A DNA stretch of 64,000 nt, taken from assembly GCA_965235115.1 (NCBI GenBank), contig OZ249436.1:17176001-17240000 (forward strand). The letters run 5' to 3'. How positions within the stretch are numbered: position 1 is the stretch's first letter; each line of letters starts with the position of its first letter. This DNA is from Laetmonice hystrix. Lineage: Eukaryota. The notes under the pieces were generated by a model. That model searched no databases. It was given only the letters and a program-made list of their open reading frames with translations, and was not told the origin of the DNA. Positions 2,792 through 20,900 of the stretch are shown here, piece by piece. A program made the translations under genes and the position numbers.

Positions 2792-2864
2792 GTAGGTACC
2801 ATGTGATGAGCCAACTGTTATAGATGTTTCCGCTCTGGACAGAATCTTCTGTAGCAACTGTCTT

Positions 2865-3255
2865 TAACTTGACCTGCTCATTATGTATCGTCGACTTGAC
2901 GTGGTAGCTCATAGCATGCCATCGACTTGACCTGGTAACTCGTAGGGTGTCGTCGACTTGACCTGGTAGCTCATAGGGTGTCGTCAACTTGACCTGCTAT
3001 GCTAGCTCATAGCATGTCGTTGACTTGACCTGCTAGCTCATAGCATGTTGTCGACTTGACCTGCTAGCTCATAGCATGTTTACTTGACCTGGTAGCTCAT
3101 GGGGTGTTGTCGACTTGACCTGCTAGCTCTTAGCATGTCAACGACTTGACTTGCTAGCTCATAGGGTGTCATCAAATTGAACAGCTAACTCAGAGGGTGT
3201 CGTTGACTTGACCAGCTAGCTCATAACATGTCGTCGACTTGACCTGGTAGTTCTT
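2865..3255. repeat. Minisatellite, ~31-bp unit (gacttgacctgctagctcatagcatgtcgtc)
   Basis: About 12 degenerate tandem copies in the DNAI2-like intron. Confidence 0.9.
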
Positions 3256-3355
3256 AGCGCATACATCATGAGCCTCCTGTTTACATTTCTGTTTCAATCT
3301 CCTGCTTTCCCTCCGTTGTGTGTTAATAACTGCACTGGTTGACCTTCTGCTCCAG

Positions 3356-3394
3356 GCCTCACCAATCACGGAGGAGGCAGAGGAGAACGGACAG
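3356..3394 (+). CDS. DNAI2: DNAI2-like short acidic exon (ASPITEEAEENGQ)
   Basis: tccag|GCC...CAG|gtaact, 39 bp, phase 0/0; acidic tail consistent with DNAI2. Confidence 0.6.
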
Positions 3395-3989
3395 GTAACT
3401 ATGAAAGTTTGACGTTATTATAATCTAAATAAATCTGGCACTCACTTCATACACAGCACCAGCAGCAGGGCGACCAGTAGGCCTACTTAGAGGCACCAGA
3501 TCAATCGGGGGATTCAACTACAGACAGGAATTTAGGACCATGAAACTCTACTCATATTGTATCTGTTACCTGGTCTGGCCAACCAGCGTGTTACATAAAT
3601 CTTTGTTCACAGAAAAATGGGAAACGGTCTGTGGCCCTGTTATCCGTGTTGATTCATTACATTATTAATAATTTTGCTATATTCCTTGCTTTTACTTATG
3701 AAGAGACCATTTAGGTTTTGATGTGGAGTAAAGTAAGTGTTATAGAGTTATATAGGTAAAAACACACCTTGATCAATTTTATCCTCAGAGATTATACAGA
3801 TCGTATGCTCCAGTTGTCATGCACACACACACACACACATCACATGTCTGAATGTTTTCAACAGGTTGATTATACATGTATCTCATTGTCTCGTTGATTA
3901 TTTCTCATTGTCAGTGCACACCTGTATAGCTTTCATTTTTAGTGCACACTCATGTGGCTTTACAATACATGAGTTTTTAAAAATATATT

Positions 3990-4655
3990 TTAACGGTTCT
4001 CGCTCCATGTATAACTTATTGAACCCCCCCGATATATTTTTCTCACTCCATGTATATTAACTTATTGATCCTCTGATTTATTTCATGGTTCTCACCCCAT
4101 GTATATTAACTTTTTTTTTTTTTTTTATGTATTAACTTATTGATCCTCTGATTTATTTCATGGTTCTCACTCCATGTATAACTTATTGATCCCCTGATTT
4201 ATTTAATGGTTCTCACTCCATGTATAACTTATTGATCCCCTGATTTATTTAACGGTATCGGTCTATGCATAACTTATTCATCCCCTGATTTATTTAACGG
4301 TTCTTGTTCCACGCATAACTTATTGATCCCCTGATTTATTTAACGGTTCTCGCTCCATGCATAACTTATTGATCCTCTGATTTATTTCATGGTTCTCACT
4401 CCATGTATAACTTATTGATCCCCTGATATATTTAACGGCCTCACTCCATGTATAACTTATTTATTCCCTGATTTATTTAACGGTATCGCTCCATGCATAA
4501 CTTATTGATCCCCTGATTTATTTAACGGTTCTCACTCCATGTATAACTTACTTATCCCCTGACTTATTTAAGGGTTCTCGCTCCATGTATAACTTATTTA
4601 TCCCTGATATATTTAACAGTTCTCGCTCCATGTATAACTTATTGATGCCCTGATT
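3990..4655. repeat. Minisatellite, ~46-bp unit (aacttattgatcccctgatttatttaacggttctcactccatgtat)
   Basis: About 14 tandem copies ending just before the acceptor at 4678. Confidence 0.9.
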
Positions 4656-4678
4656 TACCACCTGTTTCTGTTGGGCAG

Positions 4679-4684: not shown

Positions 4685-6245
4685 GACGAGGCGGATCGTA
4701 AAGGAGGAGGAGGACAGATTACCTGGTTACTCACCAACCCCCTTACCCCCTACCGACCCCCCACCACATCATCGACTTCAGAGGATGGCAACACACACCT
4801 CAGACAAACGACTTTGACAAAATCAGATGGCGGCTAGCCACGTGGCTTCATCTGGTCACACACAGCAGATGGCGGGTGACCACGTGGGTACATGGTTCAC
4901 ACACAACAGATAGCAGGTGACCAACATCTGTTCAAACACTGTACCAGCCCGTAACCACGTGGCCACGCCACCAATAAACCATCCGTCCAAGTGACTCGCC
5001 CCTCGCCCCTCCCCCTCCCAGCCGTGAAACTTGAAGGGGGGAAGTTTGTTAGAATACGTGCTGTATAACGGTGAATGATGATCCTAGAACTCACACGGAC
5101 CTGAACATGGAGATAATTAATTTATTGGGATAGATGATTGCACATGAAAGAATGTGTTGGTTCGCATTGTGTCCATTCTTCATTCACTGAATGAAAAGTT
5201 TATCAAATGTCTATTTGATTGTTCTTTAATGTTTTATTGTTTACTTCTCACAACCGTTTCGGTTACTGTCTAGATGTTATTAGCCGAACGCCATTTACTT
5301 AGAATCATGGAGTTGGTTAGAGTCGTTCAACCGTACGTTTTTGAAGATATTGAATAAACACACCTGTAGAAGCCGTTTGTATGAACACTGTATGGTTGTA
5401 GTGGTGCTCGCCGACCTAGGGTCAGTCCGTCCATCAGTCCGCCAGGCTGTAGGGGCAGGCAGTCAGTCAGTCAGTTAGTCTGCCCGTCCATTTGTCAGTC
5501 AGTACCTTGCAGGGGTCATTGTGCCTGCTCTGGGTTTATACATGCATATATTTTTGTGTTGTAATGTGATGAAATGGATATCTTGTGTATATATTATGGA
5601 TAATAAAAATATGAATTATCAGCCGAATATATGTCAGGGGAGTTGATTTTTGTCTGGTAGTAGTTGGTGTGATTTGGCAGCGTAAAAACTAGGCGTCACC
5701 TTGCATATAAAGGACCATGTCATAATGAACAGAATAAGCCTATCGGGCCAAATAATCGATCCACATCTCATCTGGCATCCACTGGATTAGGCCTCAATAA
5801 ACGGGCCTGTCGGAGAAAATTCAAAATCGGGCACATATCCAGGACTTATTTTGGAGGTGTAACAAAATCGCCTTTTTGTCGCTAAGGGGCTTAGTAGAGG
5901 GAATCCGCCAGGGGGCTCTGATGCCAGGACACCAGGGGGCTCTGTAGTCGGGACTATGATGTCATGGTTAAGTTTAGGTTTGTGATTCATAGGCGGAGGG
6001 GAGAACCTGTTCATTAATGACCACAGAGATTGGGACATTCCATAGATAATAGGGTCCCACGGTATTGTAAACATCATTAGGTAGTTGGGGTGCGTAGCTA
6101 AAGTTGGGCCGCCCGTGCATAGTTGAGGGTTAATAGGCTAAATAACACGCAGTTTGTAATGATTATAACAGCTTAGGGCCTTAAGGTTAAGTGAAACACC
6201 GGTCATACCGTACAAAATGGTCCTTTCCAGACATAGTCAGTAATA

Positions 6246-8660
6246 TTGTTGCTGTTTGATTTATTGGCAGGACACAGGAATCTGTTTGCACAGAGTGACA
6301 TGGAGTTGGGAAAAACAGACTTAGTTAAGATGACTATTGACACGCAAGGTCATAGTCCCATTCGTCAAGCACCCTATCGGGTGCCGCTGACTCGGAAGGC
6401 AGTTATTGGTGAACAGGTGGACTCCATGTTGGATGCTGGCGTTATTAGACCCTCTGCCAGTCCTTGGTCTAGTCCAGTGGTGATAGTTCCCAAGAAGGAT
6501 GGGACACTTAGATTTTGTGTTGATTACAGGAAGTTGAATAATATCACGGTAAAAAATAGTTATCCACTTCCGCGAATTGAGGACATCTTTGATACACTGG
6601 GGAGGTCAAAGGTCTATTCGTCCTTAGACCTAAAAAGTGGCTATTGGCAAATAGAGGTCGATGAAACTGATAAGGAGAAGACCGCGTTCACATGTCATCG
6701 TGGTTTGTTCGAATAACAAAATGCCATTCGGATTATGCAATGCTCCGGCTGTATTCCAAAACATCATGAATATTGTGCTGCAGGGAGTAGATTACGCAAA
6801 GGCGTACATCGATGATATTTTGGTGGTCTCGGAGACCTTTGAGGATCATATCCAACACCTGGCCGATGTCTTTGATCGTTTGGAACAAGCTGGGTTGAAA
6901 TTAAAGTTGAAGAAATGCGATTTTGTAAAATCTAAAATTAAATACTTAGGCCATGTTGTCTCGCCCGAGGGAGTGGCACCTAATGAGGATAATATCAAAG
7001 CCATAAAGTGTTTGGCAACGCCATCTAGTGTGAGGGAGGTGCGCTCCTTCCTTGGAGCAGCTGGATATTATAGAAGGTTCATCAAGGACTATGCCAAGGT
7101 AGCACAACCCCTCACCGCATTGACGAAGAAAAACATGCGGTTTCAGTGGAATAAGGAAGCACAGGCTGCCTTTGACATGTTAAAGGAAAGGCTCACCACA
7201 GCTCCAATACTGGCTTATGCGGTTCCATCAAAGCCGTATAAAATGTATACGGACGCGAGCCAGTATGCGGTGGGCAGTGTTCTCACTCAGGAGTATGAGG
7301 GAGGAGACAGGGTCATCCAATACCTGTCCCATCAGCTGGGTCCGGGGCAGCAGAAATGGCCATGCATTGAGAGGGGTAGTTTGGGGGTATCGGATAGCCA
7401 ACTAGGTTATCTACAGGCCCAGGATGAAGTGATTGGGCAGTTAGTTAGGCAGCTCAAACGAGGTAACCGGACAAAGGAAAACGAACCCTATGTTCTGGAG
7501 GGGGATATACTCTACAGAGTAGCGTCCCTTGTCCAGAATGACGCTGAACTGAGACTTCAGTTGGTCATACCATCTACGATGGTTAACACCGTACTGGAGT
7601 CTTACCATGATAATTTAGGGCATTTTGGTATAGATAAAACGTACAATTGCCTGAGGATGCGATACTTTTTTCCAAATATGTACAAGGATGTGGTGACTCA
7701 TGTGCACAAATGCGTGACCTGCAATCAGAGAAAGCTGAGGAAGAAAACAACTGAGATGCAGGACATGCCGACGCCGTCATACCCATTCGAGATGGTAGGC
7801 ATAGATACGTGTGGGCCATACACTGAAACCGCCAAAAGTAACAAGTACATAATAACAATAGTTGATCATTTCTCAGGGTGGCCAGAAGCATACCCTACAG
7901 CAAATAAGAATGCTAACACAGTAGCTCAGCTATTGTTGAATGAGTTCATTCTGAGGCATGCCTGTCCGAGGCTGATTGTATCAGACCAGGGGACATAATT
8001 TTGTAATGCAGTAATTGCTAGCCTCTCTGTAGAAATGAACATACAGAGAATCAAAACGTCCCCATACCACCCGCAGAGCGATGGAAAAACTGAACGGTTC
8101 CATCGTGTCAAGAATGATTTGTTAGCCAAGGCACCTGGTCTGGAGTGGGATAAGGCACTACCGGCTGCACTGTTCGCTTATCGAACAGCTGTAATTGATA
8201 CCACCAAATATACTCCTTTCTTCATTGTCCATGGCCGGGACCCTGTCCTGCCGATGGATACCTTATTACAACCCAAAATGAAATACTTTGGGGAGGAGTA
8301 TGTGCCCACGGTATTACAAAGACTGCATCAGGCTTTTGTACAGGTAAAAAAAAACAGAAGAAAACAGGGAAAGAAACAAAGCCAGGTTGAAAGCTAAGGC
8401 CACAGCTTGTAAATTTGAGGTGGGCGACCCCATATACTATCTCAATAAGCGACTCAACCCCGATAAATGATCTAAGTTGATGTCACAGTGGCAACCTTAC
8501 TATAGGATCATAGAAAAACTTAGCCCTGTAAATTACATGATCAGAGATCAGGTGTCCGGAAAAACCAAGAAAGTGCATGTCGAAAATATTAGGATAGCTC
8601 ACCCCGAATCCCCTTGTTCACGTGTTGAAGAAAACGCGGGAACGGTTCAGGGATGATTTT
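6246..8660 (+). mobile_element. pol: Decayed Ty3/Gypsy LTR retrotransposon pol (RT - partial RNase H - integrase - GPY/F)
   Basis: RT motifs SPWSSPVVIVPKKDGTLRFCVDYRKLN, LDLKSGYWQI, MPFGLCNAPA, YIDD; RNase H start YTDAS; integrase HHCC (YHDNLGHFG...CVTC) and D,D(35)E (GIDTCGP, VSDQG, GKTERF); SKLMSQWQPYYRIIEK GPY/F motif near 8470-8520. Disrupted by a frameshift near 6715, stops at 7996 and near 8468, a frameshift near 8350, and loss of the second half of RNase H near 7372. No gag, protease or LTR pair recognised. Confidence 0.95.
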
Positions 8661-9212
8661 GAGTTAGAAGAAACGAGGGAGAGGGTCCAACCACTTAGGA
8701 TGGGAAGGATGATGGACCCTGAGGCAGCTTTGCCGGGTAGGTTGAGTGATGGGGAGCCCAATGTCACTCTTCCTGAGGTAGAGGCAGAGGTCAACGGTGA
8801 ACAAAACGTTGCCTTACCTATATAGCACTGATCCCCCTACAGACACCCCATTGGTTGTTGTTCGGAGGGACCGTGAACCGGCTATGGAGATAACTGATTC
8901 CCCAAGATCAGCCCCAGAACCCCCAGGTCCACGGTATAACCCGAGGAAGCGATTAGATAGGGAAACAGATCAAGAAACTGTTCCAAAGAGAAGTAGACTA
9001 GAGCAGGTAGGACACAGAAAACGAGCCCAAAGCGGGTCTGAAGATGAGCACGACGAGAAAAGAAGCAAAGCTGACATGAATGAAATAAGCATAGTTAAGG
9101 TAATTAGTCAAATAAGTTAACAAAAGTACGCCAATGGCTTAAGAGCAAGCTTCGCATTATGCCAGTGAGACACTAACGTAGCCTAGTATAAAACTTGGCT
9201 TATCTGTTACAG

Positions 9213-9455
9213 ATAAAGCTCCTCCCAGGTATTGTAATCGCCATAATGGCTGTGGTATTTGCCATTTGTTGCTGTGTGTGGCTAGTAAGAAAACGTTGTA
9301 AACGATATAACATATTCCAAATTGCAAAGACAGTGAGTGACCAACCCGCTCCCACCAATGGCGCTCGGGCGGGCCGGCCAGACGAGAGGATGGTCCAGAT
9401 GAAGGGCGTCGACAACCCAGCGGTCCTGACGCTAGGGACCGGGGCGTCGGAATAA
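9213..9455 (+). CDS. Small single-pass transmembrane ORF/exon in the 3' region of the Gypsy element
   Basis: IKLLPGIVIAIMAVVFAICCCVWLVRKRCKR: hydrophobic span, Cys cluster, then basic cluster; preceded by a branch-like ACTAAC (~9172) and a ttacag acceptor. Confidence 0.45.
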   Translation: MKLLPGIVIAIMAVVFAICCCVWLVRKRCKRYNIFQIAKTVSDQPAPTNGARAGRPDERMVQMKGVDNPAVLTLGTGASE

Positions 9456-9574
9456 TAGTGTCAGTCTTTGCAGATGGATGACAAAGAGTGGGCTGTGGGA
9501 GAGGCTTTACATAGAGGCCGGGGACGTGGAACGAGGCGGACGGTGTCGGCACCACAGATAACGGTGTCCATTAA

Positions 9575-10253
9575 TACCCCCATCATACTAGAAGGCGATC
9601 TAGCTGCGCTCTAGAAAATGGGCCAGATCGCCGTAGAGCGTGGATAGAGTGCTTTGAGGTCCTTCTGAGTGTCATAGGAGCGAGATAGTGTCTCCTTGGG
9701 TTGTCATATGGTCACCATGAGCGCCATTAGCGGCGACCAATTTTGAACATGCACAAAATTTACGCCGCAGGGTCGCTGTGGATCTAAAAGCGCAGTTAAA
9801 TCAGAAGCGATCACCATCAGCGTCCTAGGAGCGCAGTAGGCCTACTAGATTCCTGAGAGCGCAGGTCGAGCACCAGTGAACGGTGTAGCATCGGCCTTCC
9901 CGTCCCATGGCGCTGGCCCGGCGCTCTTACCACGATGCTACCGAGACCTCGGTGACCCCAATGAGCCCTTTACACGCTCCGCACGGTGCTGCCGCTGCGC
10001 TCATGACGTCAGAGCTGCGTTCTTGCTGCGCAGTGAGCGCAGTGTGATCGTATAGGACGTGGTAGCAACGCAATACGAGGTGGTAGGGACGGCCTAAATT
10101 GTCCGAGAATTGCATTTTTCCACGTCGTGGCAGCAGGGTGGGAGCGGCATTGCAGTCACACTTGGAGCGGTTTTCTGATGTTGACGGCGACCAACGGCGA
10201 TCTGCGAGGTCGCCATGGTAGCCGTAAGGTCTTTATCCAGTGTGATGGGGGTA
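9575..10253. mobile_element. Non-autonomous DNA transposon (MITE), possibly PIF/Harbinger-like, nested in the Gypsy tail
   Basis: TIRs tacccccatcatactag / ccagtgtgatgggggta, with TTAA on both sides (9571-9574, 10254-10257). Superfamily is uncertain. Confidence 0.8.
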
Positions 10254-12339
10254 TTAACGACTGGGGGCACCGGGGCAACGAGGAAAATACCCATGACCTT
10301 CTGGGACTACCGAGGCAACGAGAGAGTGCGCGCAACCGACCTTGAACTGATGCGTCCTTGGGGTGGACGGCCTTGAGGTGACGACGTGATGGTCTCGTGA
10401 ACATTGACAATTCCTTGCCTCCTTTGTGATTTCATAGAAGTGGGCTGGCAAGCGGTCCTGTCGTGGGCATCAGTGAACTATGACTTCTGATAATGAGTTC
10501 GCGGACAATGCATTTTGCTAGGTTCATGGAAACACCTTACCATATACTTCTAGCCATACTATACTCTTGGAAGTTGGATGATGCTTAGAATTCAATCACC
10601 TAACTCTTGTTCAGAGCGGAACCGGTCGAGATAGACAGCCTTAGGCCTACTGCAGTGCCAGTGTGTTGTTACACGAACGGTAGTTCGGTGTATTAAGAAC
10701 CGTTCGGTAGTAGTAGAGTGAAGTAGTAACTATGATGTTACAAGTTAATTTAGCAGGCAGGCTTTATGTATTTTATTTTGAGGTTGAGTGGCGATGTAGA
10801 ACTTAGTGCTTGGGGATACTTAAGTTGGTAGTAGTTATTATAATTTAGTATGAGGAAACCGCTTACGTAACTGAAGTATAAGGTGACTTTGTAGGTTAAA
10901 AACAAGGGTAAAAGAAAGGGACTTCTTTTCTGAAGGATGGGAGGTGTAACAAAGTCACCTTTTCTACTAAAGTCCGACCCCACTTGGTTACAGAGGAAAA
11001 GTGTATCTTTTTAAAAAGTGGACTATTATTTTTTGTTCTTTCCTGGAAACTGTCATGAAAAAACCTTTTCTGCATATCTTTTTCCATGAGTATCGTCCTC
11101 TTCCATTGTGGGGGGGGGGGGGGGGGTCGACCTCCTACCCCTTCGACCCCCCCCCCCCCCACTTCCCCTGCTCCTCCGTGGCTACGGGCCTGACGATATT
11201 CATAGATATCTTATAACAAAAATCCCCTGTGGTTATGTGAAGGTGAGATCGGTCAAGCACGAGCCTGCAGATAGGCTAAATTTTAGTGGAAGGACAAAGG
11301 AAGCAGACAGTGCACGGCTATAGTTTCCAGTAGCGCCCCCCCCCCCCCCATGAATGTAGGAAGGGATACCCCCCCCCCCCCCCGACATATGAATATAGAG
11401 AGGGCTATAGGACTTGACAGCTCGTACAATGTCAGTTACTGGAGTTTGTTGTCAGTTTTACCGACTGGGAAACACTCATTTAATTTATGTTAAAATTTAT
11501 ATTATTGTGCATATTTCAAGCACGTGTAGAAAGACATATAGAAGGAAACTCCAGTATGGGATACACATTAAGATGATTAAACCTAGAGCTTCAACTTTTC
11601 CTTCCAAAAGTTTATGTGATCATAGTAAAGAGGAAAGATATTAGTTCAGTCACAGATCTGAATTGTGAAACAGCATTTATTGACCAAGTGGATTTACATG
11701 TAGATATTTTCTGCCAAATCTGATGAAAACGTTAGAATATCTTCCTGTATAATTATCACAGGAAGAGTGTCGTCTACTAGATTTGATGACGGTAACATAA
11801 ACGGGAGAAGAATGTCGCTATAATAAACTGTATCCTTCTCAAATATCAATATATATATAAACAATCTTAAATAAGCACTCCATTTTTGCACGTAAGTACC
11901 AGATCTTTCTTTGCGTATTTTATTCAACAGATCTTTCATGCTACCTAAAGTCCAAACGCCCAAATTGCCGCCGTTCTCTGCCAGATTTAGCCCATTAACC
12001 ACCTAGCGGTAACTGGCTGTACTTCAATCAGACACGAACCGTCTGCGTTCAGTGACTGCATAGACTCTATTTCTGCATAGATTGTGTAGATTCTACATAT
12101 ATCAGGACAGGCTCAAGCCGTACTATACAAACTGGGCAAATTTTAAATATATTCTGACACAAAGACCAAGTGCTCATAATGTTTCAAAAGCATGACATCA
12201 TTGTGATTTTACCGGTACTTTGTTTTCTTTAAAACGGTGTAATGTTTCAAGTGGTAAATATATGATGACACCCATAAAATACTCAAAACGTTTAAATGTC
12301 TGGGAATTAGAAATGAAATGAATAGAGTCTCAGATTGTG

Positions 12340-12840
12340 CTGCACAGACTGACACTGTACACACAGGAGCATTAAGTCACACTAGAGAATATTGTTTGGT
12401 ACGGAGACACTGTACATACAGGGGCTTACGTCACACTGGAGGATATTGTGTTGTACGGAGACACTGTACACACAGGGGCATACGTTACACTGGTGAATAT
12501 TGTATGTACAGAGACACTCTACACACAGGGGCATACGTCACACTGGAGGATATTGTTTGGTACGGAGAGAATGTACACACAGGGGCATACGTCACACTGG
12601 AGGATATTGTGTTGTATGGAGAGACTGTACACACAGGGGCATACGTCACACTGGAGGATATTGTTTGTACGGAGAGACTGTACACACAGGGGCATACGTC
12701 ACACTGGAGGATATTGTGTTGTACGGAGAGACTGTACACACAGGGGCATACGTCACACTGGAGGATATTGTGTTGTACGGAGACATTGTACACTATAGAG
12801 GACAGTGTAAACAGGAGCATAAGACACACTAGAGGATACT
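12340..12840. repeat. Minisatellite, ~54-bp unit (gtacacacaggggcatacgtcacactggaggatattgtgttgtacggagagact)
   Basis: About 9 tandem copies; source of the overlapping ORFs at 12318-12923. Confidence 0.92.
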
Positions 12841-14252
12841 GGTTGTGCAGCACACAACACGGTGTATCATACGTCTATGTTAAAAACAAAATGAACCGGG
12901 ATAATTTAAGCACCTTTCTTTAATAGACAAAACAAAAAATATACAAAAGGAAAACTTAAAAATATGAAAGTAAAAAGAAAGGAGTAACAACGCCAGTTTA
13001 GCTTCAAAAGTGTTGGTAATAAATAAATCAAAATGTAATATAGAATATATACATAACGATTACTTCATCGTTATCAATACTATTATTATACACTGAGCTA
13101 AGTAATGTACATCGCCTACAAAAGAATTTGAACTTCTTCTCCTCCATACCTTGGAAATTCGTACCTTCTCTGGTAAAAGAAATGAATTTTTCCGATAATT
13201 TTTGCAGGGCTAATAACTTTATATGACAGGACCAAATGGTCACGTTCCATGCAGCTACAAATAAGAGAAAATTTGAATAAACACTGCAACAAAGACCTAA
13301 AAATCTTCAGAATGAAAAATCACAGACCACATTCGTTTTGCCTATCAAAACCGACAGCAGTTAACCAATAAATGCCGTTATGGAACGGGCGTAAGCCAGC
13401 AGATCAACTGTTATAACCGTGGTTGTTATGTCAGTGGTGAGACGTACTATCTAAAAGGTCATGCTAATTCAAAAATATCTATAAATCTTTATCATACTAA
13501 GAGATTATACCTAAATTGCATCTACTTCCGAAATTGAATCTTATGGACTCAGTGGAGAGTACTTGGCGTGTTAGCCTAAATTCATGTACTTTCTGAATTT
13601 ATAACGAGTGTGATGTCATTGGTATCTTCAAAAAATAATTCACTAGTTACAATTTGTACTGCCACATTGCTGTGGTTCCTAAACCGGTGCTCAGCGCCTA
13701 GACTGACTACTTTTGGGCCAATAGTCCATGGATTATCCCTGAAATCCCCTAGGTTAAAGCTTACAAGTGTTTGGGTCGCGGTGGCCCTGTGATTGGGTTG
13801 CGATGGGTCGGCGGGGAGAGCGGCCTCCCCTCCAGCACGTGTCTCCATTGGGGGGGGGGGGGGGGGTCCTTGCTCTACCGTGTCATGACGTCATCGGGTC
13901 TGGGAGCACCAGGGGGAGCCACCAGTGGTGAAGCACGTGGACATACAGCGCCACCTTGAAGTAGGTAAATCATGTGATGTGACGTCACAATGGGGTCAAG
14001 TGGGGTCACGCCAGGAACATTAGTTTGTACACTGGCTCTGGGCCCACGACAACCTGCCATGGTCACAGAGTCCTTGTCTGACATCTATTCCGTCAGAAAC
14101 TGTTTAGATCTTTGGTATCAATAGCTCGGCCGTCATGAAGGCCTCTCATCCTGTCTCATGTTGGGGGGGAGGGGGAACCTGTGCGGTCCTGTGATCATAG
14201 GTGGCCACTCATCACGTGTAATTCACGTGATTGGCGGCCTTCATCACAGGTG

Positions 14253-14747
14253 ACGTGATCGGTAGTCCTCAGCTACCTTGCAGCCCTCAGGCCCCCTGAG
14301 AGCAGCACGTGATCGGTAGTCCTCAGCTACCTTGCAGCCCTCAGGCCCCCTGAGAGCAGCACGTGATCGGTAGTCCTCAGCTACCTTGCAGCCCCCAGGC
14401 CCCCTGCGAGCAGCACGTGATCGGTAGTCCTCAGCTACCTTGCAGCCCTCAGGCCCCCTGCGAGCAGCACGTGATCGGTAGTCCTCAGCTACCTTGCAGC
14501 CCTCAGGCCCCCTGCGAGCAGCACGTGACCGGTAGTCCTCAGCTACCTTGCAGCCCCCAGGCCCCCTGAGAGCAGCACGTGATCAGTAGTCCTCAGCTAC
14601 CTTGCAGCCCCCAGGCCCCCTGAGAGCAGCACGTGATCGGTAGTCCTCAGCTACCTTGCAGCCCTCAGGCCCCCTGAGAGCAGCACGTGACCGGTAGTCC
14701 TCAGCCACCTTGCAGCCCCCAGGCCCCCTGCGAGCAGCACGTGATCA
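14253..14747. repeat. Minisatellite, 54-bp unit, in the presumed KIF19 3' UTR
   Basis: About 9 near-identical copies of cacgtgatcggtagtcctcagctaccttgcagccctcaggccccctgagagcag. Confidence 0.95.
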
Positions 14748-14793
14748 GTTGCCTTTGTTTCACGTCAGCAGTTGTCCGCAGTAGCGGCGGACT

Positions 14794-14912
14794 TCACTTC
14801 TGAAGTCCGAAACCAGCGATGGCGATGTCCGTTTTGCGGTAGCCGGCGGGTATGGTCGGAGCCTGTCTGTTGGTACGGGTAGTTTGTCCTTTCATCGAGT
14901 CACTGTGTGGTC
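14794..14912 (-). CDS. KIF19: KIF19 last coding exon (GPHSDSMKG...IAGFGLQK*)
   Basis: gttctag acceptor, phase 1, matches the preceding exon; TGA at 14794-14796. Confidence 0.75.
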
Positions 14913-17900: not shown

Positions 17901-20900
17901 AGCCCACCTTTCTCCAGCAGAGATTATTCATATCAATTCACTAAAGGCTTATAGTTTTAAGGAATGCTTGCTTACTCTTCATTTTTCCTGATCTGTTTTC
18001 TGCTCCCTGGTGTCTGGAGACTGACAGGCATACCTCTGGCCTCCTCGTCTACCGCAGTCAGCTTCTCCATGTCAGACAAACTGTCCGACCCAAAACGTCG
18101 CTGGAGACTCGTCAACGAGCCCGCCTTAAACACACACAAAACAAAACTCCGAGGTCTGAATTACAAGGCCTCACTACTAAACGGTCCAATCATTTTATCT
18201 CTGAGGTCTCAATTACGAGGCCTCACTACTAAACGGTCCAATCATTTTAACTCTGAGGTCTCAATTACAAGGTCTCACTACTAAACGGTCTAATCTTTTT
18301 AACTCTGAGGTCTCAATTACAAGGTCTCACTGCTAAACGGTCCAATCATTTTAACTCTGAGGTCTCAATTACAAGGTCTCACTGCTAAACGGTCCAATCA
18401 TTTTAACTCTGAGGTCTCAATTACAAGACCTCACTACTATACTACTCTCAGGGCTTACTTTATTAGGGTAACCCCCCCCCCCCCCCAAGAAATTTGGTGG
18501 TAGGACCTAAAAATCTATCACAGTTCCTAGCCGAAACCACTCACGGTCCCCAGATCTCTCCCTAAACAAACCAGCAGTAACACTTCCCTTCAGCCTAACC
18601 CAGACCCTTAATTAACACCAAGTTCGAAGGAAGATCACAATGAGGGAACAACCTATAAATTTGATAAGACTATAATTTTGCTTGCAGGGCACCGAAAACA
18701 TGGCTCATGTCTGAGAATGGTCGTGACGTCTTAAAAAATGAGCGATAAAAGATGATAAACCTAACCCTAACACTCATTATCCCTCAGTGACGTCACGGCC
18801 ATTCCCCAAATTGTGCCGAAAACATGATCTCAGAAATGTTATCCGGGGTAGCAATGGCGGTTGTCACCAGAGGGCAGCAGTAAGAGTGGTCGCCATGCGG
18901 CAGCGGTGCCAGCGCTGCTGGCCGCCAGGTGACAGCAAGAGCAGGGTCCGCCACGTGGCGACAACTCTAGCGGCCGTCAGGTGCAGAAGCGGCACCGCCA
19001 GGTGGCAGCAGCAGTGTCAGCAGCTGCCGCCAGGGGGCTGACCTTGTTGGGGTTGAGAGTTTCATGTTGAGTAGTTGCCGCCGAGTCGGGCCGGTCGCCA
19101 ATCTCCTGCATGTAGAGCTCGTACAGCTCGTCCAGGTCCTTGGGGGTCATGACCTGATGGTCGTCCAGCAGGTGTCGCTGTTGGTGGATGATCTCGTCAC
19201 AGAGGTCGAGATGTTGGCGGTACTTGGCGATCACCATATCTTTGCGGCGGATCTCAAAGTTACGGAGGAGACAGGCTGACTGCATCTCCATGTTCTCGAT
19301 CTCTAGCTCGTGAACTTTCACCAGGAGGTTCAGGACCTCCTGCTGCTCACCACTGCCGATCTTGGTCGGCAGCAGCTGCAAACAAACAACAATAATTACC
19401 ACCAACGGTCGGCAGCAGCTGCAAACACACAACAATAATTACCACCAACGGTCGGCAGCAGCTGCAAACACACAACAATAATTACCACCAACGGTCGGCA
19501 GCAGCTGCAAACACACAACAGTAATTACCACCAACGGTCTGCAGCAGCTGCAAACACACAACAATAATTACCACCAACGGTTGGCAGCATCTGCAAACAC
19601 ACAACAATAATTACCACCAACGGTCGGCAGCAGCTGCAAACACACAACAAATTATTATTATTACCACCAACGGTAATCATGATAAACCATGCAGAGCGGC
19701 GGCATATTTTTGTTAGGGTTCGATCACTAAAAAGGGGAAACTCGAAAATTAATGAGAATAACCGACCGGATTACGACCAAAAACCCCAACAAGATACACA
19801 CAGTTAAGTTGTTTCTTTTTGGAGGGGGGAGGGGGGGGTAAGTATCGGGATAAACTATAGTTTATCCCGATATACTGGCCCTCAAGATGGGGGCTCTCCC
19901 CATGTTTTTATTACATTTTATGGGGTGCACCTATTTAGCTCCCCTGAATCCGCTACTGCCCGCCTCCACATCCCCCCTGTGAGAGGGGTCACTGACCTCC
20001 TCAATCTTGGCCGCCTTCTCACGGGCATTGTCGAGTTGTTTCTGGACGGCGGCTCGCTGGAGGTCCACTGTCTCCCTCTCCTCCTTGAGGCTGACAATTT
20101 CCTCCCGGGCTACTCGCACCTCCTCCGGCTCCTCCAGGCAGCATTCCTCCTGTCCTTTCTCCACCGTCTCTGTCCTCACGGTTTTCTGGGCTCCTGCTAA
20201 CTTCCCACCTGGAGTCGTAGACAACCACACACGATCACACCCACTCAAGATAAACACATTGGCGCCGGGAGAATTTCAGCATTGGTCACCTCTAGATCTG
20301 AGACCCCTCCAGAGAAGGAAACAAGGCATTCACAGCTACAGGGCCATTAACTAAATCCATAGTCCCAGCAAGGACCCCCCTCACAAATCGAACCAAAAGG
20401 GGCCTTCACCAAAACCATCAATCTTCATGTACTATATTCTACTGCATTATTGTATGCAATAATTTTATTGCTGGTTTCGCAAATTCTCTTTGTCTCACAG
20501 AAATTATAGGGCAGCAATCAATCCATCACAATGTACCATGCTGTCACGGATAGGGCGACTTGGACTTGAATACTGCATGCAATTTCATTGATGGTTCCTT
20601 TAATAAAAAAAATCTTCCTTCATCTCATGAAACATGACTGAGGCAACCTGAGAAACATACGTGACACTGTAGCTCCATTTTATAACATACCTGTGTCCTT
20701 GACCTCCTGACCCTCGGAACCACTCTCCTCCTCCTTATCCTCCGTGTCCTTGTCCTTCCGGCGCCGCTTGGCCAGCGTTCTTTCCTTCTCCCACTTCTGT
20801 ATAAGGAGCTGGTTACGGGCCGTCTCCAAGCGAATCTCCAAGGCTGTGTTATCCAACTCCATAATACTCCGTCTGTCAGAACAAAATACAGCTTTTACAG

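Follow-up and report, generated by a model that had tools for sequence, protein, structure and literature searches.

A 64,000-nucleotide stretch of the Laetmonice hystrix genome (contig OZ249436.1, positions 17,176,001–17,240,000; hereafter the window) contains a heavily damaged Gypsy element at 5858–10992, between duplications of GAGG. Behind its integrase is a short frame with a single transmembrane (TM) segment, which an initial annotation had described as part of a spliced, FAST-like (fusion-associated small transmembrane) protein or mini-env of an envelope-less Gypsy lineage. Comparison with other copies in the genome indicates that the segment is probably what remains, in frame, of an F-type env gene; the element would be a deletion form of an env-carrying, errantivirus-type Gypsy, and the segment likely has no selected function of its own.

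The genome (627 Mb, 35 contigs) was searched with window positions 9040–9570, giving 40 matches; because only 40 of 46 candidates were scored, the copy counts of the family are lower bounds. The copies fetched split into two forms. The short form (17 copies: the window copy and L031–L046) is ca. 8.2 kb long, with 700-bp long terminal repeats (LTRs), a gag frame of 398 codons and a pol frame of up to 1403–1416 codons. The long form (5 copies: L048, L049, L051, L053 and one decayed, rearranged copy, L055–L057) has LTRs, gag, pol in the order protease, reverse transcriptase (RT), RNase H and integrase, then an F-type env and a fourth open reading frame (ORF) of 268 codons, ORF4; the extra DNA lies at window position 9227/9231. 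LTR pairs are 99.0–100% identical in all 15 short copies with both LTRs and 99.6–100% identical in all four such long copies, and by this measure both forms are young. The short form is now at least three times as numerous as the long (17 against 5 found). In contigs from public sequencing, depth is 696 and 686 at the short-form junction and ca. 260–290 on env-only DNA; the deletion joint is present there and is therefore not an assembly error. Contig depth over the family LTR is 6–12 times that of the internal region, which suggests many solo LTRs.

The env ORF of the long copies has 650–658 codons and is open in four of the five and frameshifted in the fifth, which removes the supposition that the lineage is envelope-less. 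It opens at an ATG directly after the acceptor that corresponds to window position 9212. The protein matches the Pfam family Baculo_F (PF12259) with an E-value of 3.9e-18, above the curated cut-off. The 658-codon Env begins with a hydrophobic leader or signal peptide; a fusion-peptide-like stretch comes after an RTKR furin site at 132, N-glycosylation motifs number four, and hydrophobicity peaks at 1 and at 585, the second peak being the TM. The top eight fold matches of a structure model were F chains of respiratory syncytial virus and other paramyxoviruses, though the model is of low confidence (pLDDT 53, TM-scores below 0.2) and served as a pointer only. The Pfam match and the motifs, with these fold matches from a weak model, identify Env as a homologue of the baculovirus and paramyxovirus F proteins.

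The last 74 codons of the long-copy Env are the TM and tail found in the window, where the DNA matches the TM-tail of the element's own env at 86–93% identity. All 17 short copies have the first five env codons joined via one junction codon to the TM – the distance from ATG to TM is 18 nt rather than the 1752 nt of the long copies, 578 codons having been lost in frame at a single common junction. The frame from 9213 runs unspliced to a stop at 9453–9455, giving 80 codons that end in the Env tail. About six residues precede the TM (19-mer hydropathy 3.0 at residues 7–25), and it is followed by CCC and by six K/R in the 15 residues after it. The initial annotation had remarked on a likeness to envelope TM tails, and the segment really is one. 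A splice origin of the deletion was considered and is rejected for the three long copies examined, which have no GT..AG at the deletion ends. The 80-residue frame had no homologue at E 0.1 among proteins of 44–140 residues and no Pfam family. L092 and L093, in which TM stretches from older sister families survive, were considered as a possible second mini-env of independent origin and rejected, being decayed few-copy relics that lack an in-frame start.

In every complete copy, the TM segment sits between pol and the polypurine tract and 3' LTR, so it belongs to the element, as had been supposed. Among the refuting cases named by the initial annotation were a host exon captured by the element and a segment lying outside it in intact copies. 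Nothing was found in favour of either, and the identity to the element's own env and the position inside every complete copy leave both a negligible probability.

The two forms do not separate in the same way along their length. A tree of the TM-tail and ORF4 start placed the 17 short rows in one clade against the five long rows (support 100/100), while a pol tree of 17 rows (omitting the window copy, L045, L046, L051 and L053, in which the stretch is absent) nested two long copies among the short ones. One short and one long copy compared directly diverge by 0–1.7% over most gag-pol windows and by 15% at the tail/ORF4 window. This tree conflict fits an exchange of gag-pol between the forms, from which we infer co-packaging and template switching. 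One deletion took out 578 env codons and a second most of ORF4, leaving a short form with gag, pol and LTRs. This form would spread inside cells without Env, and its RNA would be packaged with long-form RNA, with gag-pol exchanged as the template switches.

The window copy is dead: its promoter, leader donor, gag and env start codon are all missing, and a miniature inverted-repeat transposable element (MITE) sits in ORF4 (Table 1). Its 5' LTR is fused to RT after ca. 380 bp, so that the rest of the LTR, the promoter, the primer site, the leader with its splice donor, gag and protease are missing. About 370 nt of RNase H are gone near 7375/7382, and the start codon of the env remnant is lost. 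The copy had already been recognized as decayed, and the damage extends through LTRs, gag, pol and the env start. The primer site of the Gypsy family appears to be complementary to tRNA-Gly. Minisatellite arrays flank the element at 2845–4666, 12351–12855, 14145–14857 and 18093–19707, with units of ca. 31, 46, 54, 52 and 43 bp.

Table 1. Features of the window copy of the Gypsy element, in window coordinates
Feature	Position	Strand	Remarks
Target-site duplication GAGG, 4 bp, left copy	5854–5857	+	right copy 10993–10996; sister copies have 4–5 bp duplications
5' LTR remnant (first ~380 of ~700 bp)	5858–6238	+	
Broken pol: RT, partial RNase H, integrase, C-terminal tail	6247–9120	+	stops and frameshifts
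'Exon 1' of the initial annotation, = Pol C-terminal codons	9076–9099	+	donor-like GT at 9100 unconserved in open-env copies
Branch-like CACTAA(C/T) overlapping the usual pol stop, and predicted env splice acceptor	9168–9212	+	22/22 copies
env remnant, 80 codons	9213–9455	+	five signal-peptide codons, one junction codon, TM helix, CCC, basic cluster, cytoplasmic tail
Joint left by the env deletion (1734 nt, 578 codons)	9227–9231	+	common to all 17 short copies
Consensus-like donor GTGAGT within the env tail frame (candidate only)	9333–9338	+	22/22 copies
Spacer and predicted splice acceptor directly 5' of the ORF4 ATG	9456–9473	+	
ORF4 remnant	9474–10376	+	N-terminal ~58 codons and out-of-frame last 12 codons (10338–10376), split by the MITE
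Non-coding MITE, 679 bp	9575–10253	.	inverted repeats; at least 40 full-length genomic copies
Polypurine tract	10933–10944	+	
3' LTR, 48 bp left by an internal deletion	10945–10992	+	first ~20 and last ~30 bases

The splice-like motifs of the initial annotation are present in the window: AAG/GTAATT at 9099/9100, ACTAAC near 9172 and TTACAG before 9213, with a spacing of 113 nt, and ACA/GTGAGT at 9332/9333 and TTTGCAG before 9474, with a spacing of 141 nt. All are in phase 0 around a 40-codon TM stretch (9213–9332). They had been read as a gene of three exons (codons of the Pol tail, the TM and a third exon) for an accessory protein in an envelope-less lineage, and both the phase of the four motifs and the GT of the first donor, found in 18 of 22 copies, agree with that. 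The supposed first exon, MNEISIVK, is the C-terminus of Pol, however, and in 19 of 22 copies the Pol frame crosses the donor and reads on to a common stop ca. 30 nt before the env ATG. The 'exon 1' ATG occurs in 7 of 22 copies and together with the donor GT in only three, and the GT is absent from all four open-env copies. The supposed second intron is coding sequence, the env tail up to its stop; the frames of the third exon vary among copies; and the lineage has a full env. The three-exon gene is thus extremely unlikely. Conservation of the splice sites across copies, which the initial annotation had proposed as a check, held for both acceptors and for the GTGAGT in the env tail (22 of 22 copies each) and failed for the first donor.

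In the long copies, an ATG directly follows each acceptor. Pyrimidine-rich YAG/ATG sites number only three in either copy scanned, and the env and ORF4 acceptors are two of them. A leader donor, AAG/GTGAGT, is found in 13 of 14 short and two of two long copies tested, and an acceptor-like tract likewise lies just 5' of env in the sister env families. We infer from these motifs that one leader donor would be used with two alternative acceptors, one per ATG, Env and ORF4 being made from subgenomic RNAs; production of env from spliced RNA, as the initial annotation had suggested, is likely, being predicted from the conserved donor and acceptor motifs. In flies, env is spliced from upstream exons, according to the accessible part of PMC12992720. 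Contigs of four public runs (type unrecorded), compared with one long and one short copy, had no GT..AG joint among the joints listed, which is no evidence either way because contigs drop rare forms. Within ca. 90 nt after the leader donor, and just ahead of the gag ATG, come a branch-like CTAAC and acceptor-like sites (L037:2393–2480, L049:1128–1215), a possible short leader intron.

The donor-like site in the env tail could be used in another way, in which ORF4 sequence becomes an alternative cytoplasmic tail of Env, or of its remnant; such use would be of consequence in the long form and simply be inherited by the short. ACA/GTGAGT and a phase-0 acceptor occur in all 22 copies, and GT(A/G)AGT is rare, occurring three times over 8,155 nt in one short copy and four times over 9,668 nt in one long copy. 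The 'intron', however, is open env coding sequence that reaches its stop 18 nt short of the acceptor, and ORF4's own ATG accounts for that acceptor. Further, just 2 of the 16 other short copies keep the env and ORF4 remnants open at once, and two sister families lack such a donor in their env tails. The copies are too similar to separate splice constraint from codon constraint, and we consider a tail swap highly unlikely.

ORF4 itself (L049:8635–9438) lies behind env, is open in all four intact long copies and in L057, and encodes a protein with a basic start and a Ser/Pro/Thr-rich end. It had no homologue at E 0.001 within the length range searched, no Pfam family and no usable Atlas match, and is a candidate accessory gene. 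In the 16 other short copies, remnants of 62 codons (eight copies) or 41–48 codons (eight copies) are left. One short copy (L046/L047) has a 7.3-kb insertion with a 3.7-kb tandem duplication in the spacer just 5' of the ORF4 acceptor, and the env-tail/ORF4/LTR part of long copies is found as tandem, rearranged repeats on contigs C2 and C18 (L055–L057; L048/L058). The MITE that the initial annotation placed in this region was confirmed as an inverted-repeat insertion, with an empty site in all 16 other short copies; its genomic copies are 94–96% identical, and it is presumably of the PIF/Harbinger type. Its target duplication is 3 bp, TAA/TTA – exact in 7 of 10 other copies examined and one base off in the other three – and TTAA on both sides was found in none of those 10. 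A frame open to 10345 had been obtained by removing the MITE and one TTAA. Because the duplication is 3 bp and not 4, this read-through is not a feature of the family, and the downstream frames differ among sister copies.

The lesions in the short copies bear on whether the env remnant is kept. Six of the 17 share a nonsense mutation at codon 31, and three of these also share a frameshift at codon 9; two further copies have private frameshifts, and in the window copy the start codon is lost. Each of the six nonsense carriers occupies a site of its own and has a separate target duplication, and their LTR pairs are 99.3–100% identical; two of them (L033, L034) have an open gag, a 1403-codon pol and identical LTRs. 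In 14 copies (L031–L044), the 240 nt of the env remnant have two shared disabling lesions and the ORF4 remnant has one frameshift in common; the 5.4 kb of gag-pol have none, if a pair of indels that compensate each other against the reference copy is set aside. The remnant is likely non-working, since it is already broken in many copies that inserted recently, and it is likely dispensable in cis, since copies with inactivating lesions in common continued to transpose.

Several points weigh against a functionless remnant. The 80-codon frame is open from its ATG in eight of the 17 short copies. The ratio of non-synonymous to synonymous differences (pN/pS) in the 74 TM-tail codons was 0.57 over 136 short–short pairs and 0.52 over the 105 pairs without the window copy and L045, below 1, though the pairs lack independence and these values do not establish that selection has acted since the deletion. 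Derived changes shared among short copies in the env remnant were 8 silent, 7 missense and 1 nonsense, a departure from neutrality with P of 0.02–0.045. The deletion is in frame and spared the acceptor, ATG, TM and stop, of which the frame alone would be kept one time in three by chance. Broken copies could be helped in trans, and the splicing on which the scheme of RNAs depends is all predicted.

For comparison, the integrase region gave pN/pS of 0.30 (136 pairs) and 0.22 (105 pairs), and the TM-tail gave 0.19 for short–long pairs; derived shared changes (silent, missense and nonsense) were 5, 3 and 0 at the ORF4 start and 27, 13 and 0 in integrase. Several tail states are common to short and long copies, which points to recombinant tracts from long copies that confound the test for silent excess. 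The final 12 codons of ORF4 and its stop, out of reach of the ORF4 ATG in every short copy, served as a control: they had 5 silent-type changes and 1 changed codon among 13 against a long copy, and 2 and 1 against the closer C2 copy. Because these out-of-frame codons show the same bias, the short–long silent bias can predate the deletions. The weak synonymous excess leaves a small chance that the remnant has a function.

Such a function would be that of a working mini-Env – a palmitoylated single-pass protein of 80 residues, made from a leader-spliced RNA, that aids the short form, in trans among copies. The in-frame deletion, the retained acceptor and ATG, the TM hydropathy of 3.0, the CCC, which could be palmitoylated, and the six K/R are consistent with this, as are the open frames, the weak silent excess and the excess of the short form over the long (17 against 5 copies; junction depth 696 against ca. 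264 on env-only DNA). Against it, only ca. six residues precede the TM, with no MGxxxS/T, where sORF2/FAST ectodomains have about 30 (10.1101/2025.03.14.642691, from the accessible part). The TM and basic residues are found in all seven Envs that reach the TM (alignment A1, eight rows) and are thus generic, and lineages with the nonsense and frameshift mutations continued spreading. A working mini-Env is therefore unlikely, as are the roles that might be proposed for it: anchoring Gag at the membrane, interfering with or hitch-hiking on full Env, or FAST-like transfer from cell to cell. It is a shade less probable that a small TM protein is being born from env and aids the short form in trans as a membrane tether, Env parasite or minimal fusogen. 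The preferred reading remains an env remnant without a selected function. Of the 'FAST-like or mini-env' description, the mini-env half stands as a statement of descent; the three-exon FAST-like gene does not, and a FAST-like role probably does not either, given the short ectodomain, the lack of MGxxxS/T and the shared lesions.

At least four env-F Gypsy families were found in the genome. A sister family (L098, L099, L105; e.g. L105:5480–6070) has a dUTPase ORF directly behind env (PF00692, E 2.5e-38), then a 181-codon frame. In another (L094–L097, 59% pol identity), env-F is open over 651 codons and its stop overlaps the ATG of a Ser/Pro-rich ORF of 187 codons, an arrangement that suggests termination-reinitiation. 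To judge from these frames, different families seem to have different accessory genes in the place behind env. L100, L101 and L104 (L101:3030–7169) are a young pol-less element with identical 701-bp LTRs and a 264-codon gag, overlapped by a 547-codon, N-truncated env-F frame that is open at the same length in several copies. A more distant family (L102, L103; 41% pol identity) has an open 666-codon env-F.

Judged by its sequences, the family is an F-type env Gypsy of a sort known across animals, together with an env-deleted revertant like those of flies. The 'ancient errantiviruses' of metazoans (Chary and Hayashi, PMC13524379, as far as its main text goes) are likewise intact, multi-copy gag-pol-env Ty3/gypsy elements whose paramyxovirus-F-like Env has a signal peptide, furin site and TM; the main text of that paper contains no 'splic', 'accessory' or 'truncated env', supplements being outside the scope. 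Among insect errantiviruses, the accessible part of Senti et al. (PMC12992720) describes revertants (accord, rover), env-lacking lineages that keep env-F fragments between pol and the LTR. The short form has the same intact gag-pol, young LTR pairs and env fragments lying after pol and ahead of the 3' LTR, and in both systems env-bearing and env-broken variants of a gag-pol-env-F Gypsy coexist. There, env is made from a spliced subgenomic RNA, as is predicted here. The differences, as far as that text goes, are that here one clean in-frame deletion joins the start of env to its TM and tail; and that a fourth ORF lies behind env. The env-less endogenous retroviruses known as 'superspreaders' (IAP versus IAPE; PMC10536682, seen in part) also combine env loss with higher copy number, but those are vertebrate retroviruses, not Metaviridae, and here the short form's lead in copies is modest (17 against 5 found). 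With young env-bearing and env-deleted forms in one genome, apparently swapping gag-pol, the family most likely offers an example of envelope loss in progress, and the soma-to-germline 'revertant' model from flies becomes testable in another animal.

The remnant also resembles the sORF2/FAST-like proteins of the MDG1 group and other insect LTR elements (Voichek et al., 10.1101/2025.03.14.642691, in the part available), with their size of 63–107 residues, single TM and basic patch, the last defined there as at least three K/R in the 15 residues after the TM. In that text, some lepidopteran sORF2 (7 of 22) lie downstream of pol, and palmitoylated variants escape the published screen. The sORF2 proteins described have an ectodomain of ca. 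30 residues with an amphipathic motif, usually an MGxxxS/T, are made from unspliced RNA in Drosophila, and have fusion-related evidence in vivo. The remnant differs in having ca. six ectodomain residues, no myristoylation motif, a demonstrable descent from env, and a frame broken in half the copies rather than conserved and open in the active ones (open from the ATG in 8 of 17). The literature searches listed no report of an in-frame env stump that works as a protein, with subscription papers and supplements (the sORF2 list, the eLife element tables) outside the scope. The remnant is not filed as FAST/sORF2, and for a small membrane tether the chance is slim. Small TM-plus-basic ORFs behind pol can be env stumps, which calls for caution in screens for sORF2/FAST-like genes. 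If the stump were functional after all, it would be a caught intermediate on a route from Env to the sORF2/FAST-like genes found downstream of pol.

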